From NCBI GenBank assembly GCA_017457385.1, contig JAFTHO010000130.1, forward strand, positions 1 through 58,608: 58,608 nucleotides of DNA, read 5' to 3'. Origin of the DNA: Clostridia bacterium (GTDB lineage Bacteria > Bacillota > Clostridia > Christensenellales > CAG-314). Each line of letters opens with the position of its first letter. Within the stretch, counting starts at the first letter, position 1. Shown in pieces: positions 4,420 to 37,761 of the stretch. Position numbers and translations under genes: made by a program. The notes under the pieces are model-generated. The model saw only the letters and a list, made by a program, of their open reading frames with translations. It made no database searches and was not told the DNA's origin.

Positions 4420-4422
4420 AAA

Positions 4423-5850
4423 CTAAAACTCTATATTTTTGAGATCTTCAAACAGCGCATTATATTCTTCGTCGCTGTATTGTCTTTCTTTATATTTTGG
4501 TTCGGCCTTTTTGCCTGTGTGTTGTTTTTGTTGCAATGCTTTTTCTACACTGTCAACACCCTTTGACTTGAAGTCTGCAAGCACCTTGTTGATATATGCC
4601 ATCTGGTTTGTTGCTCCGTTTGCAAGGCCTGCAACATAAAGTATCACGTCGTCTGCAAAACCCCATGCATCAGTCCACGTTTTGTAACTGCCACGGTCAC
4701 TTGCAGAAACACCACGCAAAAGACCCGCAGTTTGCAAAACTGTCTTTATCTGTTTGTCTTGTGAGACCAGTTCTGTCATATACTGTGCAATTGCACCCAC
4801 AGAAGTGAGACCCTTTTGATAAAACTTTTGCACAACGCCATCCATGCCGTCAATTGTGCGCACGTTTTGCTTGAAGCAATATTTGGCAACAAGTGTGAGA
4901 GAGTCGTCGTCAAAACCTTTTTGCAACCACGGTGTGACGTAGTCTTCTATGATAAAATCCAATGACTGATAGTATACACCAATGATTTTGTTGATTTGTT
5001 TTGCAAGCTCAAACATTTTGTCGCGGTTTTTGTCATAGTCGGCAATTTCTGCCACACTGTGCAAACCCATTTTGTAATATGCCTCTATGCGTCTGTCCAG
5101 ATAATCCATAGACGCTTTTTTGTGTTTTTTTGCAACAAAACGCAAAGTTTCGAGGTCATAGCCCATGCCCTCTGTCCACTTTTCAAAAAGACGACGGTCG
5201 TCATATTCGATATGTCTTTTTGTGCCAAGTGCGCCAAACAAAAGTTTGATGTCGTCTGTATATTTTACTGTTGTAGAAAGTTTTTGTTCTACCGCGTCAA
5301 CAGTTTTTACACCGCTGTCAGCAAGACTGCGCGCAACTTTGAGTATATATGGATAGTTTATGTCGTTGCCCTTTTTTTCTGCACAATATTTTGCAACTGC
5401 CACAAGTGCTTTTGGCTCGAAAAAGGTTGTCTCCAAAAAGATATAATACTCGTTGTATTCGTTGGTAGAAATCATACGCTCACAAAGCACACCCTGTATG
5501 TCTTTGTTGAACTGCTGATATTTTTGCGGTTTGATTTTTTTGAGCAAAACGTCGTCACTGCGCACAGGCATATATACCACTTCGCACGGGTTTTTTTGCA
5601 AAATATGCACAAGACCCAACTCCTGCCAGTAGGTATATGCAGTGAGGATATCTTCTTTGTCAATGCCAAGCACCCTTGCCATTGTGTCAAGATTGTTGTC
5701 CTGACCGCCTTTTGAGCAGAGATAAAGTCCAAACAAATATATGTCTACGTATTTGTTTGGTGCTTCTGGCAGATAGTTTGTGATAAAGACGTTGTCCACC
5801 GTTGTATAACCAACGTTTGTCAACTCTTGCGAATAGTTGCAAAATGCCAT
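4423..5850 (-). CDS. DnaD-domain / DnaB-like replication initiation and membrane attachment protein
   Basis: Repeated DnaD/DnaB_2-like helical modules, and a position immediately upstream of dnaI as in the Bacillus dnaB-dnaI pair. I prefer the ATG at 5850, which has a GGAG, over the GTG at 5862. Confidence 0.65.
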   Translation of the reverse strand: MAFCNYSQELTNVGYTTVDNVFITNYLPEAPNKYVDIYLFGLYLCSKGGQDNNLDTMARVLGIDKEDILTAYTYWQELGLVHILQKNPCEVVYMPVRSDDVLLKKIKPQKYQQFNKDIQGVLCERMISTNEYNEYYIFLETTFFEPKALVAVAKYCAEKKGNDINYPYILKVARSLADSGVKTVDAVEQKLSTTVKYTDDIKLLFGALGTKRHIEYDDRRLFEKWTEGMGYDLETLRFVAKKHKKASMDYLDRRIEAYYKMGLHSVAEIADYDKNRDKMFELAKQINKIIGVYYQSLDFIIEDYVTPWLQKGFDDDSLTLVAKYCFKQNVRTIDGMDGVVQKFYQKGLTSVGAIAQYMTELVSQDKQIKTVLQTAGLLRGVSASDRGSYKTWTDAWGFADDVILYVAGLANGATNQMAYINKVLADFKSKGVDSVEKALQQKQHTGKKAEPKYKERQYSDEEYNALFEDLKNIEF

Positions 5851-24731: not shown

Positions 24732-24760
24732 ATTATATATTTTTTGCCCTGCCTTGTCAA
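24732..24760 (-). promoter_or_regulatory. Consensus sigma-70-type promoter for the DAHP synthase gene
   Basis: On the minus strand: TTGACA (24760-24755), a 17-nt spacer, then TATAAT (24737-24732). Confidence 0.7.
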
Positions 24761-24806
24761 CGGCAAGGCAAACAAAAAAGCCTGTTTCGTAATGAAACAG
24801 GCAATT

Positions 24807-24842
24807 TGGTGCGGGAAAGAGATTCGTAAGGAGCAAAGCGAC
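24807..24842 (-). repeat. Degenerate tRNA-Arg 3'-end (att) scar, copy A
   Basis: TGGTGCGGGAAAGAGATTCGTAAGGAGCAAAGCGAC compared with the intact TGGCGCGCCGTAAGAGATTCGAACTCC. Confidence 0.7.
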
Positions 24843-25040
24843 GGAATACTCGAATTAGCGTTGTTTTCATACAAGCACTTGCCAAGTTTTGTTTACACGG
24901 TCTTTACTCGTGAACGCCTGCCTGACGGCAGGGCTTATGCGATTGCTACCATAAGGTCAATCGCGTCACTCCTGTGCCTTGCCAACACCAAGACCAAAAG
25001 GCAAAAGAAAAAACCCAAGTTTTCACTTGGGTTTATTTCT

Positions 25041-25076
25041 TGGCGCGGGAAAGAGATTCGTAAGGAGCAAAGCGAC
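25041..25076 (-). repeat. Degenerate tRNA-Arg 3'-end (att) scar, copy B
   Basis: TGGCGCGGGAAAGAGATTCGTAAGGAGCAAAGCGAC. Like copy C, it is preceded by a terminator-like hairpin. Confidence 0.7.
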
Positions 25077-25174
25077 AGAACAGCGAGAACGAAGTGGAGC
25101 GTCACTCCTGTGCCTTGCCCACGACAAAACCAAAAGGCAAAAGAAAAAGCACAGTTTTCACTGTGCTTTATTCT

Positions 25175-25219
25175 TGGCGCGCCGTAAGAGATTCGAACTC
25201 CTGGCCTTTTGGTCCGTAG
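25175..25219 (-). repeat. attL: exact 45-bp copy of the tRNA-Arg 3' half
   Basis: Identical to 37685-37729, which runs from the anticodon loop to CCA. Confidence 0.95.
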
Positions 25220-25281
25220 AACTAAAGCCAGGGCGAAAAAACCACTAAAAACGGGTTTTTTTGATAAAAAATAAGGGTTTT

Positions 25282-25309
25282 AACAAAAAAATGCAATAGC
25301 ATACCCCAA
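25282..25309 (+). repeat. 28-bp direct repeat (left arm copy) shared with the int 3' end
   Basis: AACAAAAAAATGCAATAGCATACCCCAA is identical to 37548-37575. Confidence 0.9.
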
Positions 25310-25334
25310 ATATACCCACATATGCCTTGACTGT

Positions 25335-25365
25335 AAAAAATTAAAAGACCGGTTTTATCCGGTCT
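25335..25365 (-). terminator. Terminator at the left end of the element operon
   Basis: AGACCGG/CCGGTCT hairpin followed by a T-rich tract on the minus strand. Confidence 0.7.
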
Positions 25366-25608
25366 TTAATATTTATTAAACCATGTATATATTGTTTGAT
25401 TTTGCTCTTGCCAAAATTTTTCTCTTTCTGGTGTGACTTCATTAAAATCAATACGTTGTATCTGTTCCATTGAACGATATAACATTTCTCCCATTACATG
25501 AAAGGGGTCAGTTGTTTTACATTTATAAACATAAAGTTCATAATCATTAGTAAAAATACTATATTTTCTTACATAAAAAAAATAAGATTTAATCACAATA
25601 CACCTCAA
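25366..25608 (-). CDS. Hypothetical protein (about 76-80 aa), last gene of the element operon
   Basis: ORF directly downstream of rep. GAGGTG precedes an in-frame GTG at 25596, so the start is uncertain. Confidence 0.4.
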   Translation of the reverse strand: MRCIVIKSYFFYVRKYSIFTNDYELYVYKCKTTDPFHVMGEMLYRSMEQIQRIDFNEVTPEREKFWQEQNQTIYTWFNKY

Positions 25609-25651
25609 TAAATTGAAAAAGATAAATACTCAAGTTTATTATTATAAATAC

Positions 25652-26725
25652 TTATCTCCAAACATCCCCATATATTTCAAATTGTTCTTGTATGTATTCA
25701 GTTTCAATTTTTTCAACAAGGCCGTTAAGTTCACGCAGACGTTCAATTTTCTTTGCATCAGTTTCTTCCGGTTGTTGTTTTGAATAATCAACAATATATT
25801 CATCGCGCCAAACTTCTTTATAAAGTTTATCAAGTGTGCCTTCAGTACAACCACAGACTTGACAAACAAATTGCTTAATTTGGTCGTCAGTCATACTGTC
25901 AAGTTCTTGCTCAACTTCACGTGGTATTTTATAAAGAACGCCCCAGGTTGAAAGTTGTCGAGTTCCTTTAAGTCCAAAATACATTTGCTCCAGGTGTTCG
26001 GTTGTGTCATTAACGTAGTCAAACTTCGTCATATACTTTACAACTTCCATAATAGACTTTAACAACCTTTCTTCATAAGGCTTTTTTCTGTCACGTCTTT
26101 TGTTATATACCCCAAACGCTTCAAGATAAACAATACCTTCTTGCTCATCAGTTCCGTATTTACCACCACCAGCATATTCAACTGACTTCGCCCATGCAGG
26201 CGCAAGAAAATCATAATCATCTTTTGTATACTCACGCTTTAAAACCATTGTATGTAAGTGAGGATGCCATTTACCAGAATTTTCGCCAATCTTTACTTCT
26301 AAAGATTTCACGCCACCGGCATAACGTTTTTTAAATTCTTTGCGTGTTTGTTTATGGTCGTGTGTCATATAACGCCAGGCATCTTGCAGCACTTCCAAAC
26401 CTTGTGTCAATTTTTCCCTGTCACGTATTGTATAATTCACAAACACGATATAATTGCCACTATCAACCCAAGATTTAAGATATGGATAGAGTTTTGCCAA
26501 CCAAAGCATTGACTTTGCTTTGTTGCATATCGCACAATAACGGCTTTTACAACGGCTAAAACCCTTAAAGTGTTGTGTTCCACAATGATCGCATTTTATA
26601 GTGTTTATAAACTCACCACAACTTTGTATTTTCCATGCTTCAGCAGTTAGTCCTGCTTTTTCAAAAGTAGGAGCAATCAACTTGTTATTTATCTGATGAA
26701 GCGATTTAAATTTTTTATACTTCAT
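25652..26725 (-). CDS. rep: Rolling-circle replication initiator, pC194/pUB110-type (Rep_1-like HUH)
   Basis: Zinc-ribbon-like CDHCG..C..RYCAIC, HUH motif WHPHLHTMVL and Tyr motif MEVVKYMTKFDY. AGGAG lies upstream. Confidence 0.8.
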   Translation of the reverse strand: MKYKKFKSLHQINNKLIAPTFEKAGLTAEAWKIQSCGEFINTIKCDHCGTQHFKGFSRCKSRYCAICNKAKSMLWLAKLYPYLKSWVDSGNYIVFVNYTIRDREKLTQGLEVLQDAWRYMTHDHKQTRKEFKKRYAGGVKSLEVKIGENSGKWHPHLHTMVLKREYTKDDYDFLAPAWAKSVEYAGGGKYGTDEQEGIVYLEAFGVYNKRRDRKKPYEERLLKSIMEVVKYMTKFDYVNDTTEHLEQMYFGLKGTRQLSTWGVLYKIPREVEQELDSMTDDQIKQFVCQVCGCTEGTLDKLYKEVWRDEYIVDYSKQQPEETDAKKIERLRELNGLVEKIETEYIQEQFEIYGDVWR

Positions 26726-26862
26726 AAGCTTTTTGCTCCTTTTTTCTTTTTGTTTTTTTTTGAGTGTTTTTACCCCTTCGGGCAGCTATCGCTCAACCAA
26801 GTTTTGAGCTGGAAGTGACCCCACTTGTTTCTATATATTATAAATAAAAAACAATAGCACTT

Positions 26863-27006
26863 ATCCACAATTTGTAGTGTAGTTTACACGGTAGAAAATC
26901 AACGCTTTTGTGGCTATCAGCAGTTGCTTATTCGCCACAAAAGCTGTTTCGTTTCTATTACCAACTACCAAAAAAGCACATCCAAGCAAAGAAAGTAATT
27001 GTGGAT
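26863..27006. promoter_or_regulatory. Nested inverted repeats upstream of rep (candidate double-strand origin / control region)
   Basis: Outer inverted repeat ATCCACAATT (26863-26872) / AATTGTGGAT (26997-27006), which includes a perfect TTATCCACA at 26861-26869. Inner 11-bp inverted repeat GCTTTTGTGGC (26904-26914) / GCCACAAAAGC (26934-26944) with a 19-nt loop. Confidence 0.4.
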
Positions 27007-27077
27007 GCAGAGCTTGAAACAACGTCACGAGAGTTCTTTATGTATACCAGGGGCGTTGCTTTGCCCTGCTAAGCCTT

Positions 27078-27102
27078 CACCTGGCTATGCCAGGTGAAGA
27101 CT
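27078..27102. other. Strong hairpin CTTCACCTGGC/GCCAGGTGAAG just downstream of the NTPase gene
   Basis: 11-bp stem with a 3-nt loop and no T tract. Confidence 0.5.
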
Positions 27103-27125
27103 TGACGCAACGGATAAGGTTAAAA

Positions 27126-29423
27126 TCATTTTTTAGACTTCTTAGAAGCCTCATATTCCTCAACAAGCTTTTCTGCAATGTCACGTTTATTTAAATCATA
27201 AGCTTTGGCCAAAACTTTTTTGTAATCATATTTTTTACTTATCTCATCCAACATTGATTTAACTTTTGGTGTGAGAACAACTTTGTCTTCTGCCTGATTA
27301 GTTATCTTCAACAACTGCTGTATAAAGTAACTGTTTTGCGACTTAAATTCTTCCAACGTTGGTTTTGTGCTGCCATACGTTGGAACATCTTGCAAGCCTT
27401 TACCTTGTTTGCAGACTTCTGCAGTAAGGATCTCACTGTAACAATCAGTAGAAAACCTATCAGAGTAGATCTTTTTCTTACAAAGATAATAACGGTGTTC
27501 ATCAGTTCCACCTTCAAGTGTACCGGAACGAGTTTCTATCTTACTTCTGAAGTAACCGTATTTATCGTGTACTGCAGTATGCTTCAAATGAAAAAAAGAT
27601 ACAACTTTTTTCAGAAGATAAAGAGTTAAACAATTATCACTTCGTTTAGTTCTATAATCATAATAAAGTGAAATAAATTTACCAAAAACAACATTATGCA
27701 AAAGATCTTCTAAATAAAAGAACGGCATTGCCAAGTTTTCATCAGAAACATCTGCTATATTAAGCAAAGTGCAAAGTTCTTTTGCATCAGCACCCCAACT
27801 GGATGCACGTTGTTCGTCTGTGTAAAAACGGATAAAAGGATAATTGTCTATAGTTGCTTTATGACGGGACATCTTTAAACTGTAGTTAAATAAATCGTTC
27901 TTTTGATTGGCATCATCAGACATTTTTTCAATGCCCTGCAGTTCAACCTGGTTGCCACGTTCTTTGCCTATTTCAGTTATACCAACACAAGCAAATTCGA
28001 GCATGCTGGTGTGTTCTTCGTCAATACGTTTTCCAAGTCGCACGTCATCAAAATCAAGAATATGAGCATAATTACTATCATAGCGATGCTCAGGGGTCCG
28101 TTCAAAAAAATCCATATCCCAAACAGGAAAATGCCCTTCACAAACAAGCATGTTATCTGACCGAATAGAATAATTTGCTAATGCCAAACTCGAAGGAACA
28201 GTATAAACAAAGTAAAGTTGGGCATACGTTTCCAACACGTCAAAAATGCTTTCACTTACAAGCTCTGTTTCTCTAAAAGTGGGATAAATGGTATAATCAT
28301 AACCAAACAAATTATCTGCAGAAGGGTTACTATAAAAACGTTGTTCTTGTTTTCTTACCCAAAGTCTAGCAGACGTAAGATTGAAAACAAGACCTGAATC
28401 AATAGCACAATCAAAGTCGTTTTCAAATTGAGCCCATGGAAATAAAGGGAACTTCATATCATTATTTTGGATGAGTTCAAAAGCCTTTTGCCTGAAGATA
28501 ACTTCCTGTGACAGCATTATATCTGTCAACGTCGTTGTCTTTTTGCTACCCATAGAACCGGTTATCAAAATAACCAGGTTAAGTTTGTTGTTTATAAAAT
28601 TCTTATTACGTTGTTCAAACCTTCTAAGCCTTTTTAAACCTATATACCGGCGTATTTTAGATAAAAGAATATAACCTAAAACAAACCAGGCCCACGTTGG
28701 CAAAGAAGAAAACATGAGAGCAACGTCCATTGACAACTTGTACACCTGCAAATAAACAGTTGCAACGTCAAAAGAAACAATAAAATAAATCATCCAGGCA
28801 ACAAGCTCCATTGCCATAGAAAAAACGTTTAAGTTGATCAGCCAAAGGCAGAGCCATAATCTTACGTAGATCTTACGTTGGTTTAAAAAATCAAAAAAAC
28901 CTTTTAATTTTAGCCCTGCCGGCTGATATTTTTTTTCTAATTTACGCCATTTGACAAGAGCCTTGCTGTCCTCATTAACATCATTTTTACTTTCACTCAA
29001 AAGCATATGTTTGACAACGAAATACAAACCTACAAGTGGTGGCGCAAAAAGCATAATTAAAATGCTTGCCTGGTAAATAAATTTAACAACAATGCCAAGA
29101 TAATTGCCAAAATTACTGGCATTAAAAAACTGTGGCCAAAAGGCTTGCATTTTAAGCTCGAAGTCAGACCAGAGCAAAGGAAAAGCTGTATCTATATTGA
29201 CGTAAGATGAAACATTAGCAACGCCTGGCTGCATAACATTATCACTGTTTGTAAAGATGCAAAAAAGTTCAACAAAATAATAGGCAACAGACTGAAGAAC
29301 GTGCCAGACTGTTTCAAAGAAACGCAACCACGCTGTAGAAAACAAAAACAGCGTAGATAACGTTAACAATGTTATGCCGATTGACAACCAATCTTTTTTT
29401 GTGAGCTTTTTAAAAATTGTCAT
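27126..29423 (-). CDS. Polytopic-membrane P-loop NTPase (765 aa), family unassigned
   Basis: About 280 aa with roughly 6-7 hydrophobic helices, then Walker A LITGSMGSKKTT, a Walker-B-like ACVGITEIG, and a lysine-rich C-terminus. Confidence 0.8.
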   Translation of the reverse strand: MTIFKKLTKKDWLSIGITLLTLSTLFLFSTAWLRFFETVWHVLQSVAYYFVELFCIFTNSDNVMQPGVANVSSYVNIDTAFPLLWSDFELKMQAFWPQFFNASNFGNYLGIVVKFIYQASILIMLFAPPLVGLYFVVKHMLLSESKNDVNEDSKALVKWRKLEKKYQPAGLKLKGFFDFLNQRKIYVRLWLCLWLINLNVFSMAMELVAWMIYFIVSFDVATVYLQVYKLSMDVALMFSSLPTWAWFVLGYILLSKIRRYIGLKRLRRFEQRNKNFINNKLNLVILITGSMGSKKTTTLTDIMLSQEVIFRQKAFELIQNNDMKFPLFPWAQFENDFDCAIDSGLVFNLTSARLWVRKQEQRFYSNPSADNLFGYDYTIYPTFRETELVSESIFDVLETYAQLYFVYTVPSSLALANYSIRSDNMLVCEGHFPVWDMDFFERTPEHRYDSNYAHILDFDDVRLGKRIDEEHTSMLEFACVGITEIGKERGNQVELQGIEKMSDDANQKNDLFNYSLKMSRHKATIDNYPFIRFYTDEQRASSWGADAKELCTLLNIADVSDENLAMPFFYLEDLLHNVVFGKFISLYYDYRTKRSDNCLTLYLLKKVVSFFHLKHTAVHDKYGYFRSKIETRSGTLEGGTDEHRYYLCKKKIYSDRFSTDCYSEILTAEVCKQGKGLQDVPTYGSTKPTLEEFKSQNSYFIQQLLKITNQAEDKVVLTPKVKSMLDEISKKYDYKKVLAKAYDLNKRDIAEKLVEEYEASKKSKK

Positions 29424-29518
29424 ACTGTATTAAAAGTAAAAACTATATAGCCAACCAGCAAAAAAATAAATACAGAAGCTATAAGTTTAAATATATTTTT
29501 TAACGTAGTCTTTTTCAT
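29420..29518 (-). CDS. 32-aa single-TM peptide (MKKTTLKNIFKLIASVFIFLLVGYIVFTFNTV)
   Basis: Found by manual translation. Its stop overlaps the NTPase start (ATGA). It is too short for the ORF track. Confidence 0.4.
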   Translation of the reverse strand: MKKTTLKNIFKLIASVFIFLLVGYIVFTFNTV

Positions 29519-29631
29519 TGTTTGACTTTTTATTTATTTTGGTTATAATAGTTAATGAAGAAACGCAACTTGTAAAAAGTTGATGAATGGGCGGCTTAAG
29601 CTTAGCCCGTGGGGCGTTTCTTTTTTTTATG

Positions 29632-29955
29632 TCATTTTTTAGGATATTTCCAAGATAAAGGCTTGTCTTCAAAATTAGATATTTTATCGTGACGGACTCT
29701 TTTTGCAATATACATTGCATTCGGGTCTTTTTTATTTGGATTAGGATAAATCATTTCATTTGAATGTCTGCCATCTTTTTCGCGATGCATAACCTTTCTA
29801 TAACAATATTCGTCAACAGATTGTTCGCCTACAATAAGAGCAGGATGATTATTTTTTCTATAATACCTAAAATGAGGATAAGGGGCTTTCAAATGAATAG
29901 ATTTTTTAGCCGGTTTAACTACCGGCTTTTTTGTTTTCTTTTTTACTGCCATCAT
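29632..29955 (-). CDS. Basic 107-aa hypothetical protein
   Basis: Its start overlaps the stop of the upstream gene. The N-terminus is K-rich. Confidence 0.6.
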   Translation of the reverse strand: MMAVKKKTKKPVVKPAKKSIHLKAPYPHFRYYRKNNHPALIVGEQSVDEYCYRKVMHREKDGRHSNEMIYPNPNKKDPNAMYIAKRVRHDKISNFEDKPLSWKYPKK

Positions 29956-31295
29956 TTACCCCTTAAGAAATCAACTACCCAACGAAGAACGTTCCAACCA
30001 AGAAAAATGAGAACAGCACCCAAGACCCACAAGCCAATAGTTTTAAGTTTGTCAAAAAAAGAATCTACTTCAGGAATTGTAACGTTAATAATAGGACCAT
30101 CAGGATTGTCAGGGACAGGTTCGCCAGTATCTGGATCAACTGGTTTTGATTGCATATTGTCAACGACACCCAAATTGTAATAATCGCCATCAGTAACAAA
30201 AGCAAGACGTAAAATTGAAACGTCAGCTATAATAGTAAATTCCTTTTCAGTCACAACAAATGTATTAGTGTTATAAGTGCCAGTATTATAGTCAGTCAAA
30301 GCAAAACGCAAAACCCAATCGTGTGAACGAATTTTGTCTTCAGACTCCTTGCTAAGATTACTTTGAACTTCAACGTCAAAAATACCAGCCTCATACATTT
30401 GACCAATTTGTTCATTTTCCAAAAAAGCATCGGATTTTTCTATGCTGTTCCATTGATAGGTTGAAGAAAACCAACCGTCACCAGTATACGTCACGTCAAT
30501 GTCTGATTTAAGATAAACCGTATCCGGTGTAACCTCGCCAAATTGAACAATATCACCAGTGCTACCACCTTTGTGACTGTAATAAGTCTGATATGTATAA
30601 TAAACATCTGCTTCAAGCAGGTTTTTCATTTTTTTATCGGTAGAAAAAGAAACAAAATGCACGTCACAAGCCGTTGCAGAAGCAAAAATGCCACCGTCAG
30701 GATAACGAATAAAGCCAACGTATTTATCTGTAACAGTTATAACTTCAACGTCTTTAACAGACAAAGAAAGGGTTGAGCCACTACCTGTAAAAGTGAATGC
30801 TTTGCCTACTTTAAATGGGGTCATAGAAACAGTGTTGCCATTGTCAAGTTCTTCATCAAAATCAGAGATAAAACGTCTTGAAATAGAAGAAATTTCGTAA
30901 TAACGTGTTTCATCAGAACTAACGGTCAAACCATCGACTTTATATTTAAAAAAGCCGTCATGAGAATTAATCAAGGTCAAACCATAAACTTTATAATCAA
31001 CGTCTTTCTCAACCAAAGAAATATTAATGGAAGCTGCACGCAAAATTGCAGGCGAATAAACGTAAACAAAAAGTTCGTTGTTTACACTTTCTGCAACTGT
31101 CAAAAGTTCCAATTTGCCATTGGTATAATCAATAGGATATTTAGATGCATCAAACATTGGATCTTCAGCAAGGTCGTCCATAACGTTTGTATATTGAATA
31201 GTATCGTTTGCTGTTACAGCAAAGGCTGTGGCAGTTCCGCCACAGCCGAAGCATAGCAACAAAACGAAAATCAAAATAAGACTAATTTTTTTCAT
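29952..31295 (-). CDS. Lipoprotein-like secreted protein with C-terminal TM anchor (447 aa)
   Basis: Signal sequence MKKISLILIFVLLLCFGCGG and a C-terminal helix IGLWVLGAVLIFLGWNVLRWVV followed by RGK. Confidence 0.75.
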   Translation of the reverse strand: MKKISLILIFVLLLCFGCGGTATAFAVTANDTIQYTNVMDDLAEDPMFDASKYPIDYTNGKLELLTVAESVNNELFVYVYSPAILRAASINISLVEKDVDYKVYGLTLINSHDGFFKYKVDGLTVSSDETRYYEISSISRRFISDFDEELDNGNTVSMTPFKVGKAFTFTGSGSTLSLSVKDVEVITVTDKYVGFIRYPDGGIFASATACDVHFVSFSTDKKMKNLLEADVYYTYQTYYSHKGGSTGDIVQFGEVTPDTVYLKSDIDVTYTGDGWFSSTYQWNSIEKSDAFLENEQIGQMYEAGIFDVEVQSNLSKESEDKIRSHDWVLRFALTDYNTGTYNTNTFVVTEKEFTIIADVSILRLAFVTDGDYYNLGVVDNMQSKPVDPDTGEPVPDNPDGPIINVTIPEVDSFFDKLKTIGLWVLGAVLIFLGWNVLRWVVDFLRGK

Positions 31296-31438
31296 CGTTT
31301 TTTCCGTTTATTATTTTTAGTTGTAAAAACTCCTGTCAAAGCACAGATAATCACAAAGGCCAAACCTATGCCAAGGCCAAGAACGATTGTGTCAAAATCT
31401 TCCTCAGATACAACTTGTCCAAGCTCGGTTTTAACCAA
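31292..31438 (-). CDS. Coat-like mini-protein: acidic N-terminus, one TM, basic C-terminus (about 48 aa)
   Basis: Manual translation gives ..VKTELGQVVSEEDFDTIVLGLGIGLAFVIICALTGVFTTKNNKRKKR. The stop overlaps the next start (ATGA). There is no ATG or GTG; TTG at 31438 is the best candidate start. Confidence 0.3.
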   Translation of the reverse strand: MVKTELGQVVSEEDFDTIVLGLGIGLAFVIICALTGVFTTKNNKRKKR

Positions 31439-31461
31439 GGTGATTGTTGTATCTTCAGTTA

Positions 31462-33480
31462 TTAAAAATTTTCGTCACCTTCCGGTTCATAAAGAAAATT
31501 ATTAATGCCAGCAACAGTAAGTGCATCCAAGATACTTGTGCCATAGTCTACCTGTGCGTATGCGTATACTTCACCATCAACGATAAATGTGATATTACAT
31601 CTGATGATTTCATATCTTGCAGTAATTGTTGTTGTTTCGTTAATTTCTTGATCTACGTATTGAGTACCGTCAGCAAGGAACCAGCCAACAAAGTTGTAAC
31701 CTGTTTTTGCTGGTGCATTAGGGATTTCTGCAGCTTCACCAATAATTACATAATCAGATTGAACTGTGTTGCCATCCGCAATGAAAGTAACAAGTTTTTC
31801 ATTGAGTTTCCAAACAGCATAGAGGTTGATAGTTGAACCATTATTTTCAGTTACACCGTATACTTCTTCTTGATCTGCGTATTCGACGGCACCATTTGCT
31901 GCAGTTGCCCAGCCAAGGAAGATATAGTGTTCACGTGTGAATTTGTTTGCTGACAATTTAGTGTCAATATCATATTGAACACCTGTCTGATCTGCCATTG
32001 TGCCAGTACCGCCATTTGCATGGAACTTGAAATTATAAGTTACGGTTTCCCAAACTGCTTTGAGTGTTACAGTGCCATTTGCAGTTGCAGTAAGATTGTT
32101 TGCACTTGCACCATCTGTCAAATAGCTTGTTGTGCCATTGATAGACCATTTTACAAAATACATACCTTTATTTACGAAAGTATTAGCTGGCAATGTTTTA
32201 GCCTGGTCATATGTCATTGCAACGTCTGCCATAGTACCAGTACCGCCCATACCATCAAATTTGATCGTATAAGTGTTAGCCTGCCATACAGCATAGTAAG
32301 TGATTGTGCCACCGTCAGTTGCAGTCAATTTTGAAACAGATGCTTTATCTGTTTTTGCTACTGAACCTGTTGCTGAAGTTGCCCAACCAGTGAATGTATA
32401 ACCTGTCTTTGTAAAGGCATTTGCAGTCAAGTTTGCAGTCTGGCTATATTTCATAGACATATCTGCCATTGTTCCAGTACCGCCATTTTTGTCGAACTTG
32501 ATTGTGTAGTCATGTTCTTCCCAAACGGCATACAAAGTTACTGAGCCATTATCTGTTGCAGTCAAGTTTTTAACAGATTGTTTATCTGTATAAGTTGCAG
32601 TAGTTGCAGTTGATGACGTACTCCAACCTTTAAAAGTATAACCTGTGCGTGTGAGTGTGTTTTGTGTCAAAGCTTTAGCAACGTCATAAGTCATTGACAT
32701 TGTTGCAATGCTACCAGAACCACCATTATTGTTGAATACAATGCTGTATGTATGAGCACGGAAACCAGCATACAAAGTAACGTCACCAATTACTGTGCTA
32801 TCTGTATAAGGTTGAGTGCAAGCTTCATCTTTAAACCAACCTGTAAATGTATAACCTGTCTTTATTGGAGCGTCGGGCAAGCCATAAGTGACAATAGAAA
32901 TCTTTTTGCTTGTGCCAGAAGTATACGTCTGGTTGATCTCATAGTCACCGCTTTCAGTTTCATATACGTCAGTAAATGTTATAGACACAGTGTATTCTGT
33001 ATTAGCTTTCAAAGATCCAGCTTCATACAAGTCAACAAGATCAACGACAAATTCATTTGGATTCCAACCGTTAGCCAAGAAAGAATGTTCTACTGCATAG
33101 TTAGAGCCTGATGCAACAAATTGGACTTTAATAGTTCCAACAGCGCCATCTTGCCAACTATACTTAGAACTAAAATGCAATCTGCCTGTTGTTCCAGAAT
33201 TATCTGTAAAATTAAGATAATTTGAACCTTGACCTGTCAACGTTGCAGGTGTATAAGATGCATATGGTGTAGCTTCATTGCCAGACATATAAAAAGGCAT
33301 TACAGCTAAAACAGAAGTCTCAACAACAGAATCACTTACTGAAGGTGGAGTAACAACGTTGTCAGACTCATCCTCTTTAACGTTTGAGATCTTGACAAGC
33401 AAAACCAACGTTGAAAGAGAAAAGACTATTGCCAAAACCCAAGCAATAATTAAATGAATTTTTTGTTTTTTATAAGTCAT
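31462..33480 (-). CDS. Signal-anchored surface protein with about 7 Listeria-Bacteroides (Flg_new-type) repeats
   Basis: N-terminal TM helix. Repeated G(Y)TF(T/K)GW...(V/I)TLYA(V)W units. GAGGAG RBS. Confidence 0.85.
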   Translation of the reverse strand: MTYKKQKIHLIIAWVLAIVFSLSTLVLLVKISNVKEDESDNVVTPPSVSDSVVETSVLAVMPFYMSGNEATPYASYTPATLTGQGSNYLNFTDNSGTTGRLHFSSKYSWQDGAVGTIKVQFVASGSNYAVEHSFLANGWNPNEFVVDLVDLYEAGSLKANTEYTVSITFTDVYETESGDYEINQTYTSGTSKKISIVTYGLPDAPIKTGYTFTGWFKDEACTQPYTDSTVIGDVTLYAGFRAHTYSIVFNNNGGSGSIATMSMTYDVAKALTQNTLTRTGYTFKGWSTSSTATTATYTDKQSVKNLTATDNGSVTLYAVWEEHDYTIKFDKNGGTGTMADMSMKYSQTANLTANAFTKTGYTFTGWATSATGSVAKTDKASVSKLTATDGGTITYYAVWQANTYTIKFDGMGGTGTMADVAMTYDQAKTLPANTFVNKGMYFVKWSINGTTSYLTDGASANNLTATANGTVTLKAVWETVTYNFKFHANGGTGTMADQTGVQYDIDTKLSANKFTREHYIFLGWATAANGAVEYADQEEVYGVTENNGSTINLYAVWKLNEKLVTFIADGNTVQSDYVIIGEAAEIPNAPAKTGYNFVGWFLADGTQYVDQEINETTTITARYEIIRCNITFIVDGEVYAYAQVDYGTSILDALTVAGINNFLYEPEGDENF

Positions 33481-33528
33481 AAAATCTCCTCAAAAAAAGA
33501 ACTCAAACTAAAAGTTTGAGTTTAAAAA

Positions 33529-33759
33529 TTATTCAGTTGCTTCGTCTGCAGGTTCTGGCATGTCGCAATCTTCACAAACACCATCTACATAGTCATGATT
33601 GCATTCATGTTCACATTCGATGCAAACACCATCTACGTAATCATGTTCGCAAAAGAGTGATGGAACAAACGTTTTAAGTGCCAACATTGACGTTGACAAA
33701 AAGATTGCAATAATAAGAACCCAAGAAAGAACCCTTTTGAATTTAGCTTTTTTAGCCAT
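33529..33759 (-). CDS. 76-aa TM protein with Cys/Asp-rich tail (CEHDYVDGVC twice)
   Basis: AAGGAG RBS, an N-terminal basic segment plus a TM helix, and a duplicated HDYVDGVC motif. Confidence 0.65.
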   Translation of the reverse strand: MAKKAKFKRVLSWVLIIAIFLSTSMLALKTFVPSLFCEHDYVDGVCIECEHECNHDYVDGVCEDCDMPEPADEATE

Positions 33760-33854
33760 TTAAAAAATCTCCTTAAAAAAAATATAGTTGTAAAAGTGCA
33801 AGTGAGTATCAAAAAAAATATTAACTAAAGTTTGAGAAACACCCCCTTTATCAA

Positions 33855-33977
33855 TCAAGAAATAACAAAGGCTACAAGTAAAGCATCGTTGGCAACCTTG
33901 TTATATTTAGTTTTACGTCTGTAAGGCTTTTTTCTTTTTGAATAATAATTGGGTTTAGTTCGTTTACGTTTTGGCAT
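33855..33977 (-). CDS. 40-aa extremely basic peptide (MPKRKRTKPNYYSKRKKPYRRKTKYNKVANDALLVAFVIS)
   Basis: Found by manual translation. AAGGA lies 6 nt upstream of the ATG. It is too short for the ORF track. Confidence 0.35.
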   Translation of the reverse strand: MPKRKRTKPNYYSKRKKPYRRKTKYNKVANDALLVAFVIS

Positions 33978-34006
33978 AAAATATCCTTATCCCTAAAAGG
34001 GAATGC

Positions 34007-34072
34007 AGTTTTACAGGGATGACTGCCAACCCGAGTGAGGTAGTGTAGTTTTACAAGGATGACTGCCAACCC
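34007..34072 (+). repeat. Two 26-bp direct repeats AGTTTTACA(G/A)GGATGACTGCCAACCC, period 40 bp
   Basis: 34007-34032 and 34047-34072, one mismatch. Confidence 0.85.
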
Positions 34073-34073
34073 A

Positions 34074-34433
34074 ATGGTGGTGGTGTTTATTTTAAGTCTT
34101 ACCACCAACAGACTAAGAACAAAGGAGTTCAAAATGCATAACGCAATGGAGTGGTAATGTTTAACGTGCTAGACCACTAATGCACAATCGGTATAATTGC
34201 TGAAACCACTCAAGGTTTTGGGGTGGTAATTCTTTTCCGGACGGCTACCACGAATCCGTCTTACACGACCAAGATTAAACTCTGATTGTCGAGACTGAGA
34301 GTGTGAGAGATTTAAAATACATTTTTCGGAGGAAAACCTAAAATGTAAATAATTCAAAAAAGAAACTTTGACAAAAAGTCAGGGTTTAATGGTGGTGGTC
34401 TTTAATTTAAAGTCCTACCACCAACGGACTAAC
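34074..34433. repeat. Hairpin-repeat field: two related 44-45-bp GGTGGTGGT...TACCACCAAC...GACTAA units plus two further (A/G)GTGGT.../...ACCAC hairpins
   Basis: Related units at 34074-34117 and 34389-34433, about 85 percent identical. Additional hairpins near 34150-34178 and 34221-34251. Confidence 0.7.
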
Positions 34434-34474
34434 CAAAAATCAGATAAAAAGGAAGTGTATGGATTTAAAAACAA

Positions 34475-34750
34475 TCACTTTTTAGCGTGTCTGATATTCA
34501 CCCATTTTGGAACGTCAACATTGTTTTTGCGATCAAATTCAGTTGTAACGTCCAACAAAACTTCTTCACCGGGAACAGCTTTAAAAGCCCCAACGTCTGT
34601 GCGACATTTTCTCAAACGTGGTTCAGGCATAAAACCTTCTGCATCTGGTGCAAAAACTTCTGCAACGTAATGGTTTTCGCCAGTATACGTTTTGTTTTGT
34701 TCAGAAGTGAATGAATAAGCTTTACTTGTAAGATAGATATACTTTGACAT
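34475..34750 (-). CDS. Hypothetical 91-aa protein
   Basis: AAGGAG RBS. Third gene of the leftward operon. Confidence 0.6.
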   Translation of the reverse strand: MSKYIYLTSKAYSFTSEQNKTYTGENHYVAEVFAPDAEGFMPEPRLRKCRTDVGAFKAVPGEEVLLDVTTEFDRKNNVDVPKWVNIRHAKK

Positions 34751-34753
34751 AAG

Positions 34754-35038
34754 TTACTCCTTTGCCCTTTTGGGCTTTTTATATTTGTTCCGGTTTAAGC
34801 ATCCGGTGTGCTTTTTAAATTTTTTGATCAAGTTGTTTTCACAACTTCGATAAGCCTGCAGATAAGATACCGTTGACGTAAAGTGTGGGCAATCTACAAA
34901 CGTAACGTTAAATAAACGTTGTGGAAAAGTTTGTTGCCAAAGATCAGCAGGTTTTGCAGTTTCAAATCTACGTTGCACGTTGCAATTTGCCCTGATACAG
35001 AACATACAAGGTGCACAAACAACAACATCTGCACTCAT
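34754..35038 (-). CDS. Hypothetical 94-aa Cys-rich, C-terminally basic protein
   Basis: Its start overlaps the stop of the upstream gene. Confidence 0.5.
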   Translation of the reverse strand: MSADVVVCAPCMFCIRANCNVQRRFETAKPADLWQQTFPQRLFNVTFVDCPHFTSTVSYLQAYRSCENNLIKKFKKHTGCLNRNKYKKPKRAKE

Positions 35039-35247
35039 AATGCAATTGGTGTAGAAGACATTTGTCTGACGCCAAATATCTTATTGAGAATATAGTCATA
35101 CTCTTCAATTACAACTGTTCTGTTATTGCCTATAACAATAACGCTATAAAGGCCTTTTCTTGTTTTTACTTCTTCAACGGCATAAATGCTGTTGATTGTC
35201 ACAAAAAAGCGTGTGCCATCTTCTTTTGTTAATTGCATTGCGTTCAT
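35035..35247 (-). CDS. Hypothetical 70-aa protein, first gene of the leftward operon
   Basis: GGGGAGAG RBS. Divergent from the XRE gene. Confidence 0.55.
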   Translation of the reverse strand: MNAMQLTKEDGTRFFVTINSIYAVEEVKTRKGLYSVIVIGNNRTVVIEEYDYILNKIFGVRQMSSTPIAL

Positions 35248-35291
35248 TTCTTCACTCTCCCCTTTGTTCAGTAATTTTGATAATTAAAAAA

Positions 35292-35370
35292 ATACGATAA
35301 TATCGTATTTATAAAAATATTATAAACGGTAATATCGTATTGTCAAGACAAAAAAACAATTTTATCGTAT
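35292..35370. promoter_or_regulatory. Operator array in the divergent control region
   Basis: Palindrome ATACGATA-A-TATCGTAT (35292-35308), plus further TATCGTAT half-sites at 35333-35340 and 35363-35370, about 30-32 bp apart. Confidence 0.6.
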
Positions 35371-35394
35371 TTTTTTTTAAAAGGAGAACTAAAA

Positions 35395-35712
35395 ATGCTA
35401 AAAATCAAAGATGCTCGTAAAGAAAAAGGATTAAAACAATATCAACTTGCAGAAAAAGTAAATGTATCAGTTCAAACAATTAGTGGTTATGAAACTGGTT
35501 ATGCTAAACCACCAATTGAAATACTTATAAAAATTGCAGATGTATTAGAAACAACAACAGATTATCTTTTAGGTAGAGAATCGGAAATAGGAATTATAAA
35601 TGCAAATGCAAACCTTGCTTCCGATGAAGTGCAACTACTCGATTTATATCGTCAAATGAACTTTCAAGACAAAAACCAACTCATTGGCTTTGCTAAAGCT
35701 TTGGTTTACTAA
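35395..35712 (+). CDS. XRE-family HTH transcriptional regulator (repressor-like)
   Basis: LKQYQLAEKVNVSVQTISGYETG...LIKIADVLETTTDYLLGRE. AAGGAG RBS. Confidence 0.85.
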   Translation: MLKIKDARKEKGLKQYQLAEKVNVSVQTISGYETGYAKPPIEILIKIADVLETTTDYLLGRESEIGIINANANLASDEVQLLDLYRQMNFQDKNQLIGFAKALVY

Positions 35713-35726
35713 AAGGAGATAAAAAG

Positions 35727-36374
35727 ATGGCAGAAAAATTAGTATGTCCAATTTGTGGCGAACCAACAAGAGTGTACATGGGCAATGCACGTAAAGACAG
35801 ATTATGTGGCAAACATGCTGATGAACTTAAAGCCGGCAAGCTTGTTTTGGATGAAAAAGGAAACTTTGTATCAACAGAAAAAGAAGAAAGCAATCAAAAT
35901 GAATTAACTTGCATTATTTGCGGACAAATATCAAATGGATATCATTTTTGCAAAGACTGCTACAAAAAATATAAAGACAAATCAGTTGATTTAAGAATAA
36001 AAAATTGTACTGAAACAACAATTTTAGATGAATATGGAAACAGAAAATATACTTGCGAAGATGGAAGAAAAGTAAGAAGTCTACAAGAAAAAGTAATCAG
36101 CGACTTTTTATTCAATAATAAAATTAGAGCAATTTATGAAAAAGAAGTTTATTACACAGAAAATGATGAAGATAAAGTATTGCATCCAGACTTTTACCTG
36201 CCAGACTATGATATCTATATCGAACACTACGGTATGACAGGCAAAAAATACGAACAAATGAAGGAATACAAAGAAAGAATATATAAAGAAAACAACTTAA
36301 AATTAGTTGTAACCTGTCCGGAAGATCTGTCAAACATTGCAGCAAAATTAAAACCAATATTAAAAATTAATTAG
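35727..36374 (+). CDS. Zinc-ribbon protein with C-terminal PD-(D/E)xK-like nuclease motif
   Basis: CPICG...C and CIICG...CKDC ribbons, then SLQEKVISDFL...HPDFYLPDYDIYIEHYG. Confidence 0.6.
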   Translation: MAEKLVCPICGEPTRVYMGNARKDRLCGKHADELKAGKLVLDEKGNFVSTEKEESNQNELTCIICGQISNGYHFCKDCYKKYKDKSVDLRIKNCTETTILDEYGNRKYTCEDGRKVRSLQEKVISDFLFNNKIRAIYEKEVYYTENDEDKVLHPDFYLPDYDIYIEHYGMTGKKYEQMKEYKERIYKENNLKLVVTCPEDLSNIAAKLKPILKIN

Positions 36375-36417
36375 ACATTATATAATCTTTTCACCATGCA
36401 ACAGGAGGTTTTAACGT

Positions 36418-36543
36418 ATGGAATGGAAAGATTATGTAACAGCACTAACTCAAATTGACGGTCTTTTATGGCAAGTCATCGGCGCCATGAAAGCCGAACA
36501 AGCAAAAAAAATGCCCGGGAACAAACCAGGGCAAATGACGTAA
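36418..36543 (+). CDS. 41-aa ORF immediately upstream of int (possible Xis/RDF-like small protein)
   Basis: Found by manual translation (MEWKDYVTALTQIDGLLWQVIGAMKAEQAKKMPGNKPGQMT). AGGAGG lies 9 nt upstream of the ATG. Confidence 0.35.
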   Translation: MEWKDYVTALTQIDGLLWQVIGAMKAEQAKKMPGNKPGQMT

Positions 36544-36587
36544 CAAAAACAGTCAAGGCATTATCTTTACAACAACAAGGAGAAGAT

Positions 36588-37565
36588 ATGCCAAAAATCA
36601 AATTGAAAGCCTGTAGCATAAGACAAAGACCAAACGGTCTTTTTGAAGTCCGTTTTATACACGAAGGTCAAAGAATATCGGTATATGAACGTGAAAAAAT
36701 TGCTTGCATAAAAAAAGCAAACAAAAAAATCAAAGAAATGCAAACTTTGCCAGCCATTGAAAAAACTGTCTATTTTGACAGTTGGTTGCAAACCTGGTTG
36801 GAAACGTACAAAAAACCGAACGTATCAGAAGGGCAATTTAAAGCTTTAGAAGTTTGCTTGAGACTGCATCTGATGCCAAATATTCAACGTAAAGAGATCT
36901 CAAAAGTAACAGAACTAGAATGTCAGAACATACTTAACAAAATAAATGGTATAAGAACAAAAAAAGATGCCTTCAGCATTTTAAAAAATGCTTTTGACAA
37001 AGCTGTTGCAATGAACTACGTTGCAAAATCGCCAATGCAATTTTTGAAAAGACCAAAATACAAAAAACAAAAAGGAACTCCATTGAGCAAGAAAGAGCAA
37101 GCACAATTTTTAATTGACGTTCAGCACGTTACAGAAAAACAAGCTTTTTTGTTTTTGCTTTACTCCGGACTACGTCGTGGAGAACTATTAAGCTTGAAAT
37201 GGTCTGACGTGAAAGAAAACACGTTGCACGTGCCGGGAACAAAAACAGAAACGTCAAACAGAGTTATACCTTTGTTTGACAAACTAAAGGCAATACTAAA
37301 CGAAATGCCTAAAAATAACGAATTTATATTTAACCACGTAAAAGAAACGTTAACAAAAAAATTCAAAAAGCTGTGTCCGGAACATAAACTGCACGACTTG
37401 CGCCACACGTTTGCAACAAACTGTTTAGAAATGGGGATATCGATGAAAGTGGTTCAACAATGGTTAGGCCATGCAGACTTTGGAACAACTGCAAATATCT
37501 ATTCAACAGTGCTGGAAAAGTACAATAAAGAGCAAGCCGAAGTGTATAACAAAAAAATGCAATAG
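36588..37565 (+). CDS. int: Tyrosine site-specific integrase of the tRNA-Arg element
   Basis: LRRGELLSL, HDLRHTFATNCL and WLGHADFGTTANIY motifs. The ATG at 36588 follows AAGGAGAAG, and I reject the upstream extension of the track ORF. Confidence 0.9.
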   Translation: MPKIKLKACSIRQRPNGLFEVRFIHEGQRISVYEREKIACIKKANKKIKEMQTLPAIEKTVYFDSWLQTWLETYKKPNVSEGQFKALEVCLRLHLMPNIQRKEISKVTELECQNILNKINGIRTKKDAFSILKNAFDKAVAMNYVAKSPMQFLKRPKYKKQKGTPLSKKEQAQFLIDVQHVTEKQAFLFLLYSGLRRGELLSLKWSDVKENTLHVPGTKTETSNRVIPLFDKLKAILNEMPKNNEFIFNHVKETLTKKFKKLCPEHKLHDLRHTFATNCLEMGISMKVVQQWLGHADFGTTANIYSTVLEKYNKEQAEVYNKKMQ

Positions 37566-37575
37566 CATACCCCAA
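37548..37575 (+). repeat. 28-bp direct repeat (right arm copy) overlapping the int stop
   Basis: Identical to 25282-25309. Confidence 0.9.
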
Positions 37576-37684
37576 TTTATACCCCAATTCAAAAAAAATA
37601 AAAAAAATAACAGGCTGTTTTTGCCTGTTATTTTATGTAAAAGTGCAACAAAAAAGGCTTGTTTTCGTTCAAACAAGCCTAAAT

Positions 37685-37729
37685 TGGCGCGCCGTAAGAG
37701 ATTCGAACTCCTGGCCTTTTGGTCCGTAG
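37685..37729 (-). repeat. attR: 45-bp core within the intact tRNA-Arg
   Basis: Identical to 25175-25219. Identity ends at the 5' edge of the anticodon loop. Confidence 0.95.
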
Positions 37730-37761
37730 CCAAACGCTCTATCCAGCTGAGCTAACGGCGC
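37685..37761 (-). tRNA. tRNA-Arg (anticodon ACG), CCA encoded
   Basis: Manual cloverleaf: GCGCCGT/ACGGCGC acceptor, GCTC/GAGC D stem, TTTGG-CTACGGA-CCAAA anticodon arm, AGGAG-TTCGAAT-CTCTT T arm, G-CCA. Confidence 0.9.

Follow-up and report, generated by a model that had tools for sequence, protein, structure and literature searches.

The question raised by this locus is what kind of mobile element carries a rolling-circle replication protein (Rep), a single large membrane NTPase and a set of small membrane proteins. The window, which is the whole stretch analyzed here, comprises 58,608 nucleotides of a Clostridia bacterium (NCBI GenBank assembly GCA_017457385.1, contig JAFTHO010000130.1, positions 1 to 58,608 of the forward strand), and within it an element of 12.5 kb is inserted in a gene for tRNA-Arg(ACG). 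We consider this element likely to be an integrated, apparently intact, temperate and nonlytic inovirus-like prophage of gut Clostridia, in which the ATPase pI has been replaced or is highly derived. This reading is based on the homology of a 447-amino-acid (aa) protein (p447) to a protein of bajarodino virus 12, on a gene exchange found in a related locus (L120), on the gene order, on the rolling-circle Rep, on the lack of genes for lysis or for a type IV secretion system (T4SS), on the strand skew, and on the mobility of relatives. The phage-like switches of two relatives, of the CI/Cro type in locus L118 and LexA-like in locus L110, were also counted in favor of a prophage.

Links to Zot-Bearing Genomes

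No match to p447, or to the small proteins p107 and p32 encoded next to it, was found in Pfam, PHROGs, NCBIfam or PDB. p447 has 1,113 relatives that correspond to no Pfam family, and the profile of its family gave no match in PDB, to Orf6 of Propionibacterium phage B5, or to VP4 of HRPV-1 (hhalign 0.1% for VP4). A full-length homologue was found in bajarodino virus 12 (locus L123; PQ006185.1), a circular genome of 9,828 bp that the GenBank taxonomy places in Inoviridae. This genome encodes a Zot protein of 266 aa (L123 1–801; 33.3 bits against a Pfam cutoff of 20.3), and just upstream of Zot, with only a small open reading frame (ORF) between them, a 541-aa protein in a gIII-like position. The 541-aa protein was matched by p447 using tblastn (E 1e-31, 96% query coverage) and by the p447 family profile using hhalign (probability 100%, E 4e-68, 443 columns). 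A protein of the structural module is thus homologous to that of a classified inovirus. The reading made earlier from the sequence alone (hereafter the sequence-only reading) had found the element not placeable in a described family, and this no longer holds, since a genome classified in Inoviridae shares p447.

The second link is provided by L120, which encodes no NTPase. Exactly at the NTPase position, L120 has a 272-aa Zot-like ATPase (4352–5170), and the neighboring modules are homologous to those of the NTPase-type loci. The amino acid identities to NTPase-type loci are 83% for the transposase, 62% for Rep, 80% for a SprT-like protein, 57% and 50% for the N-anchored proteins of 369 and 193 aa, 48% for the p447-family protein, about 60% for a 146-aa protein, and 77% for a 150-aa protein. 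The Zot-like ATPase was recognized by PHROG_197 ("Zot-like", E 1.9e-10) and was borderline for Pfam Zot (19.5 bits against a cutoff of 20.3); its match to the Zot of bajarodino virus 12 gave a tblastn E value of 1e-21. No Zot homologue was found in the NTPase-type loci. On these comparisons, L120 and the NTPase-type elements represent a natural swap of a Zot-like ATPase and the NTPase. Through this swap, an ATPase is found in the pI position of the morphogenesis module of the element, and the NTPase would be a positional substitute for pI/Zot, with a role to match. Of the options left open by the sequence-only reading, it is the inovirus-like one that the p447 homology and the L120 gene swap support.

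Both Zot-bearing genomes resemble the element in being small circular or integrating genomes in which an N-anchored protein of immunoglobulin-like or adhesin type is followed by a p447-family protein and then by the ATPase. Bajarodino virus 12 also shares the divergent XRE repressor and the tyrosine integrase, whereas L120 has an IS30-like transposase. The two differ from the element in that their Zot/pI-like ATPases are soluble proteins of 266–272 aa, whereas the element carries a membrane-fused NTPase of 765 aa together with a 32-aa peptide and a basic protein. The swap of a Zot of ~270 aa and a membrane-fused NTPase of 720–780 aa offers a handle on how filamentous phages cross the monoderm envelope.

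As separate observations, neither gut Zot-like ATPase (272 aa in L120, 266 aa in L123) has an evident transmembrane (TM) segment, unlike classical pI. Bajarodino virus 12 has no recognizable Rep, and about 1.5 kb of its genome (L123 2000–3500) is without annotated coding sequences and contains short unannotated ORFs (≤112 aa).

Integration Site and Gene Map

The features of the element are as follows.

25174..25219, attL; 46 nt identical to the 3′ part of tRNA-Arg
25281..25309, 29-nt perfect direct repeat, copy 1; just inside the left end, partner at 37547–37575
25344..25367, bidirectional terminator-like hairpin; just inside attL, downstream of the 80-aa ORF
25366..25608, minus strand, 80-aa ORF downstream of Rep; 76 aa in the L093 gene call
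25652..26725, minus strand, HUH rolling-circle Rep of pC194/Rep_1 type with an N-terminal zinc ribbon (Pfam)
26726..27125, minus strand, 400-bp hairpin-containing noncoding spacer; may serve as double-strand origin or Rep promoter
27126..29423, minus strand, 765-aa NTPase; polytopic membrane domain of ~280 aa, then P-loop ATPase
29420..29518, minus strand, 32-aa single-TM peptide (p32); translationally coupled to the NTPase
29632..29955, minus strand, 107-aa highly basic protein (p107); putative DNA-binding protein
29952..31295, minus strand, 447-aa protein (p447); N-terminal signal/lipobox, C-terminal TM anchor, putative adsorption or cap protein
31292..31438, minus strand, 48-aa TM peptide (p48); acidic N-terminus, basic C-terminus, kept only in the closest clade
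31462..33480, minus strand, 672-aa signal-anchored Listeria-Bacteroides-repeat protein (p672); variable putative host-binding protein
33500..33522, minus strand, terminator-like hairpin between p76 and p672
33529..33759, minus strand, 76-aa protein (p76); basic N-terminus, one TM segment, acidic Cys-rich C-terminus, strong ribosome-binding site
33855..33977, minus strand, 40-aa extremely basic peptide (p40) with a hydrophobic tail
33978..34474, minus strand, noncoding region; candidate origin or packaging region
34475..35247, minus strand, three small early ORFs (91, 94 and 70 aa) without assigned function (Pfam, PHROGs)
35275..35376, switch region; palindromic operator-like repeats and promoter
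35395..35712, plus strand, XRE/RstR-like repressor (NCBIfam NF041951, E 4e-19)
35727..36374, plus strand, 215-aa protein with a zinc ribbon and a nuclease-like part (Pfam/PHROGs); homologues in 11 related loci
36468..37565, plus strand, tyrosine integrase (phrog_1, E 2.7e-64)
37547..37575, 29-nt perfect direct repeat, copy 2; inside the right end, overlapping the 3′ end of the integrase gene
37684..37729, attR core; within the intact tRNA-Arg(ACG) gene

The host tRNA-Arg(ACG) gene was located at 37685–37761 on the minus strand using ARAGORN and scored 65 bits with the Rfam tRNA model; no other Rfam match was found over the element. The attachment (att) repeats cover the 3′ part of this gene from the anticodon region. 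The sequence-only reading had described them as exact over 45 bp; the exactness and the spacing of 12,510 bp between the copies, which gives the size of the unit, were confirmed, and the identical length was found to be 46 nt. The tyrosine integrase placed the element in the 3′ end of tRNA-Arg(ACG), and the 29-nt direct repeats are plausible candidates for integrase arm sites. The G+C content is 35.2% within the element and 40–41% in the flanks. Two other assemblies (L093 and L094) carry the element at the identical site with 99.98% identity, and two additional contigs (L095 and L096) contain internal parts only, at 99.98–100% identity, which do not reach the junctions. An empty attB or a circular attP of this exact element, suggested earlier as a check, was found neither among these other occurrences nor in a metagenome scan for the attL/attP junction.

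To the left of attL (24760–25174), degenerate copies resembling the tRNA 3′ end are located at 24806–24846 and 25040–25080 (TTGGYGCGGGAAAGAGATTCG...), each of them after a terminator-like hairpin, and a 60-nt repeat has copies at 24963 and 25099. These repeats may be remnants of earlier integrations at a hotspot.

All ORFs were found at the sizes reported in the sequence-only reading, and the stop/start overlaps it described are real for p48/p447 (31292–31295), p447/p107 (29952–29955) and p32/NTPase (29420–29423). Profile searches of all ORFs of the element against Pfam, PHROGs and NCBIfam bore out its assignments of a pC194-type HUH Rep (Rep_1, E 3.9e-22; a zinc ribbon of IS91 type was also recognized), of a Listeria-Bacteroides-repeat protein (Flg_new, E 2.4e-56, for p672), and of the XRE switch and the integrase. 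The same searches agreed with it in finding no genes for portal, terminase, capsid or tail proteins and no relaxase, VirB4 or VirD4; genes for lysis or of FtsK type were likewise not found. PHROGs gave "tail" matches for the Flg_new protein alone, and these are weak (E ≥ 0.003) and fall on its repeats. A tailed prophage (Caudoviricetes) is excluded by this gene content, with no terminase, portal, HK97-fold capsid or tail, and so is an element of T4SS type that is integrative and conjugative (ICE) or integrative and mobilizable (IME), with no match to VirB4, VirD4/TcpA or a relaxase.

Opposite the gene for the RstR-like XRE repressor is a consensus promoter from which a single long operon, ending in the HUH Rep, is transcribed. 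This promoter is a perfect TTGACA-16-TATAAT (35346–35319, minus strand) between the repressor gene and the main operon. The noncoding region of about 500 bp within the operon had been called hairpin-rich. Two pairs of repeated units are present, a 40-nt tandem pair (33998–34077) and a 49-nt hairpin unit that occurs twice (34086–34134 and 34402–34450), but the folding of the region is only modestly above that of shuffled sequences (z −1.9). CTTGATA, the nick consensus of pC194, is as frequent as expected by chance, and its sole copy in the element sits in the Rep gene and not in the spacer.

The composition of the element is strand-specific. At third codon positions on the physical minus strand of the element, the fraction of T is 0.443 and that of A is 0.273, compared with 0.306 and 0.284 for host genes in either orientation. 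The operon genes have third-position T fractions of 0.31–0.52 (0.39–0.52 except for the 94- and 70-aa ORFs), and the value for M13 genes is 0.51. The three element genes on the opposite strand mirror the bias (A 0.474, T 0.251), and the excess of T therefore belongs to the strand and not to codon choice. This excess fits rolling-circle production of single-stranded DNA (ssDNA) of the sense strand.

The 765-aa NTPase and Its Family

The NTPase was found to have no match in Pfam, PHROGs, NCBIfam or PDB, by either sequence or profile. An earlier AF2 model built from a shallow alignment was discarded (pLDDT, the predicted local distance difference test score, 62.5), and its Foldseek matches are meaningless because the model was poor. 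The AlphaFold model from a 106-sequence alignment reached a pLDDT of 91.8 and consists of a helical membrane domain of ~280 residues followed by a P-loop domain. A Foldseek search of the viral structures in BFVD returned one unnamed 269-aa viral protein, A0A894JLK1 (E 4.9e-4). This protein, close in length to the gut Zot-like ATPases, may belong to them.

Direct comparisons by hhalign with M13 pI, B5 Orf8, L2 ORF13, L2 ORF1 and HRPV-1 VP8 gave a P-loop match at most. When a profile of the two gut Zot sequences was used, the ATPase domains were colinear over Walker A, a Walker B of the unusual form "ITE", and an "RH..D.QR....REL" motif. The probability was 23%, or 40% with an insert removed, and the score of 33 is about equal to the 32 that the gut Zot profile reached against the B5/M13 Zot profile in what had been intended as the positive control. 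With colinear motifs, a control-level score and a low probability, derivation of the NTPase from pI by fusion and insertion is plausible but not established, and remote homology to the gut Zot proteins is possible but unproven. The NTPase would be either a highly derived pI, with an N-terminal membrane domain fused to it and large insertions, or an unrelated replacement.

An NTPase with this architecture could also belong to a nonviral transfer element resembling an IME or an actinomycete ICE (AICE), in which Rep would act as the relaxase, the NTPase as a coupling protein or TraB-like pump, and the surface proteins in cell contact. AICEs of the pSAM2 type are comparable to the element: they measure ~11 kb, integrate at tRNA genes, have a rolling-circle Rep and encode one membrane-associated ATPase along with small membrane proteins. 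In FtsK/TraB and VirD4, too, the membrane domain is N-terminal and precedes the P-loop domain. Rep is encoded directly downstream of the NTPase in nearly all relatives, a Dnd-like system is an example of the cargo that some relatives carry, and few family members are found in IMG/VR. However, TraB of the AICEs is a translocase of the FtsK/SpoIIIE family, and no Pfam signal for FtsK_SpoIIIE, VirD4, TraG or VirB4 was detected in the NTPase of the window or in 60 members of its family; nor were FtsK, TrwB or VirB4 among the fold matches of the NTPase obtained with Foldseek against PDB. The AICE class and the TraB-type alternative of the sequence-only reading were set aside on these grounds. A transfer element also leaves unexplained both the exchange of Zot for the NTPase in L120 and the presence of a p447 homologue beside Zot in an inovirus genome, and we regard it as unlikely.

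Relatives of the NTPase number at least 1,818 when clustered at 90% and at least 806 when clustered at 50% identity, and among the matches listed nearly all full-length relatives are about 680–840 aa in length. In a scan of one genome per species, 457 NTPase loci were found. These loci belong to uncultured Christensenella, Christensenellaceae and further Clostridia, together with Gallimonas, Onthoplasma and Scatosoma; the hosts are mostly gut Christensenellales/Clostridia, and the sources include human, mouse, chicken, rabbit and ruminant guts. Up to three copies of the family occur in one metagenome-assembled genome, and the members within a genome are distinct (L013/L054; L022/L025/L057; L032/L039; L038/L078/L090), which suggests polylysogeny. 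Literature searches on the NTPase family, bajarodino virus and A0A894JLK1 returned nothing relevant, and no description of this variant was found in the searchable literature.

A conserved core order was derived from 89 loci: one or two N-anchored ectodomain proteins, the p447 family, a basic protein, a TM peptide of 30–32 aa, usually in overlap with the start of the NTPase, then the NTPase itself, and a rolling-circle Rep. Outside this core, modules are exchanged. At the position of Rep_1 in this element, most relatives have REP_ORF2-G2P, and integration depends on either a tyrosine integrase or an IS30-like DDE transposase. L118 (138–3496) has a classic CI (S24 peptidase)/Cro switch and a Phage_rep_org_N replisome organizer upstream of the core module, and the replication modules of the family are therefore not limited to rolling-circle Reps. 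L110 (MT835493.1, 459–25210; deposited as "UNVERIFIED: Bacteriophage sp.") encodes UmuC and a LexA-like S24 repressor in addition to a tyrosine integrase. A Dnd-like cluster (PAPS reductase, DUF4007, cysteine desulfurase, helicase/PLD) is located downstream of the Rep gene and could be either cargo of the element or flanking host DNA.

Several relatives were found in mobile or circular form. L002, an NTPase-type element of 11.3 kb with a tyrosine integrase, closes on itself and is present in four samples. An identical 14,577-bp element is present at two unrelated chromosomal positions, with a separate 14-bp target duplication at each, and two more relatives have target duplications of about 15 bp. 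The IS30-like members (HTH_38 plus rve; L107 1197–15773, L108 1197–15773, L111, L117 and L119–L122) share the conserved ends GTAAAGTTTTAYAAT ... CTTGACTTTTCA, with target duplications of 14–15 bp and circle junctions with a 3-nt spacer. In a scan for joined ends, four metagenome contigs were found to connect the right end to the left end across the 3-nt spacer; L120 (11.8 kb), which is among them, is circular because of a 43-bp terminal overlap. Judged from these junctions and duplications, the relatives are active and episomal, with varied insertion sites.

The element could in principle be an integrative rolling-circle plasmid or a defective remnant, with the NTPase and anchored proteins serving the host, for example in the display of adhesins. 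The exact element was seen only in integrated form, in the two assemblies reaching across the insertion site, and it carries adhesin-type repeats. Against this, the ORFs are undamaged, the two att copies agree exactly and the promoter matches the consensus perfectly. Whereas the integrase and Rep modules were exchanged, the core has been kept over at least 806 clusters, and relatives show multiple copies per genome, fresh insertions and circular forms. With intact genes, exact att repeats, a conserved core and active relatives, a plasmid that serves the host or a dead remnant is very improbable.

Known Filamentous and Budding Viruses and a Possible Particle

The gene order of the element agrees with that of Propionibacterium phage B5, an inovirus of Gram-positive bacteria (Paulinoviridae), in which small TM proteins are followed by a large anchored protein, a small protein, the ATPase and Rep. 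M13 (Ff) has the corresponding gVIII-gIII-gVI-gI order, although without a Rep after the ATPase, which is seen only in B5. Both share a rolling-circle Rep and the lack of lysis genes with the element, and M13 also shares the T-rich sense strand. They differ in that the NTPase has no detectable similarity to pI, and p447 has none to B5 Orf6. The genome of the element is twice as large, no secretin is present (as expected in a monoderm host), and no major coat protein or gV-like ssDNA-binding protein was identified. Inoviruses of the CTXphi type resemble the element in having an RstR-like repressor divergent from the structural and replication operon and in chromosomal lysogeny. CTXphi integrates at dif through the host XerCD, whereas the element uses its own tyrosine integrase at a tRNA site.

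The criteria of Roux et al. (2019) for inoviruses include a small genome, short genes, and structural-type proteins of 30–90 aa with a single TM segment. The element has 12.5 kb, one TM segment each in p32, p48 and p76, and a hydrophobic tail in p40, and it encodes the rolling-circle Rep that is expected of Inoviridae/Tubulavirales. By description only, it can also be likened to, and set apart from, IME1 of Dehalococcoides. IME1 occurs in integrated and episomal form without hallmarks of tailed phages, and filamentous or budding viruses were proposed from its pI-like ATPase and small TM proteins; it has 21–28 kb, is confined to Chloroflexota, was proposed to contain double-stranded DNA, and has a recognizable pI-like ATPase (bioRxiv 10.64898/2026.09.15.751708).

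The membrane-anchored proteins also bring to mind a pleomorphic membrane-vesicle virus, in which spikes would be carried in a lipid envelope and the DNA would be condensed by basic proteins. Acholeplasma phage L2 (Plasmaviridae) and HRPV-1 (Pleolipoviridae) have genomes of ~7–12 kb, are nonlytic and encode membrane-anchored envelope proteins, and L2 is temperate with tRNA integration. The element has several anchored ectodomain proteins (one with both a signal peptide and a C-terminal anchor), conserved hyper-basic proteins and no evident major coat protein, and its order of small membrane protein, spike and NTPase recalls HRPV-1. However, the NTPase profile gave hhalign probabilities below 1% with L2 ORF13 and ORF1 and 0.3% with HRPV-1 VP8, and no VP4-like spike was found. 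L2 has no rolling-circle Rep and uses the host replisome from DnaA-box origins, whereas the element encodes such a Rep. The p447 homology and the gene swap point instead to Zot-bearing genomes, and budding is made difficult by the walls of bacterial hosts. With no similarity to these L2 and HRPV-1 proteins, neither an assignment to Plasmaviridae or Pleolipoviridae nor the plasmavirus/pleolipovirus option of the sequence-only reading is supported, and a pleomorphic virus appears quite unlikely.

Several findings weigh against an inovirus-like prophage. The Zot models of Pfam (PF05707) and PHROGs (Zot-like) matched neither the NTPase of the window nor 60 members of its family, comparison of the NTPase with the B5/M13 Zot profile gave hhalign 4.7% with the P-loop alone aligned, and the matches of the model with a pLDDT of 91.8 in PDB are weak (HerA, the STIV2 B204 packaging NTPase and AAA+ proteins). 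There is no convincing major coat protein, the candidate p48 being badly placed for expression and not conserved. Classical inoviruses lack a counterpart of the conserved hyper-basic protein, and in p76 and the conserved 30-aa peptide a basic N-terminus precedes the TM segment, which is the reverse of classical coat topology. The strand skew is equally expected for any rolling-circle replicon, just 2 family members are present in IMG/VR, and bajarodino virus 12 is itself a sequence-only genome that was classified through its Zot. Finally, no particle, ssDNA or excised form of the exact element has been observed.

If the element is an inovirus-like prophage, derepression would lead to its excision, and Rep would make single-stranded copies of the operon-sense strand. 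p107 and p40 would bind this single-stranded DNA, and the NTPase with its coupled 32-aa peptide would do the job of pI, threading the DNA through the membrane. During extrusion p76, p48, p32, p447 and p672 would be added as coat, cap and adsorption proteins, and the particles would be released without lysis. A filamentous virion with circular ssDNA and nonlytic extrusion would receive indirect support from the excess of T, the lack of lysis genes and the circular relatives. The virion might differ from this, for example as a nucleoprotein filament of type-II-oriented membrane proteins.

Inoviruses are currently found almost solely by pI/Zot, and the rest of the element is inovirus-like. Phage finders that depend on this marker miss the family because pI/Zot is absent or unrecognizable in it. 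We tentatively propose, as a conjecture that may well prove wrong, that the NTPase, the 30-aa peptide and the hyper-basic protein form an unrecognized export and assembly machine that displaced pI/Zot in a large lineage of filamentous viruses of monoderm gut Clostridia, and that this lineage is a Tubulavirales-like group of family level or higher missed by pI-based detectors. If particles are made, a sizeable share of the chronic and nonlytic gut virome of these bacteria has been overlooked; Dnd-like defense genes are carried as cargo by some of the elements.

Some further features of the small proteins were noted. p107 belongs to a conserved family of basic proteins of 100–170 aa with a net charge of up to about +25, for which nothing was found in Pfam or PDB. 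In most members of the NTPase family, the ORF just upstream of the NTPase encodes a short TM peptide equivalent to p32 with the motif GY[FL]IYTG. The 48-aa peptide p48, described as coat-like in the sequence-only reading, was dropped as a major coat protein; it begins with TTG, lacks a Shine-Dalgarno sequence, and is restricted to the closest clade, most family members being without it. p76 is probably the best-expressed small membrane protein because of its strong ribosome-binding site and the terminator-like hairpin directly after its gene. Just outside its TM segment, p76 has a duplicated C-x-H-D-Y-V-D-G-V-C-x-x-C motif, and a similar C-K-H-E-Y-E-E-G-K-C-K-I-C motif follows the TM segment in the Flg_new protein of L002 (3387–4784). 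The two motifs may represent a shared membrane-proximal Cys knuckle.

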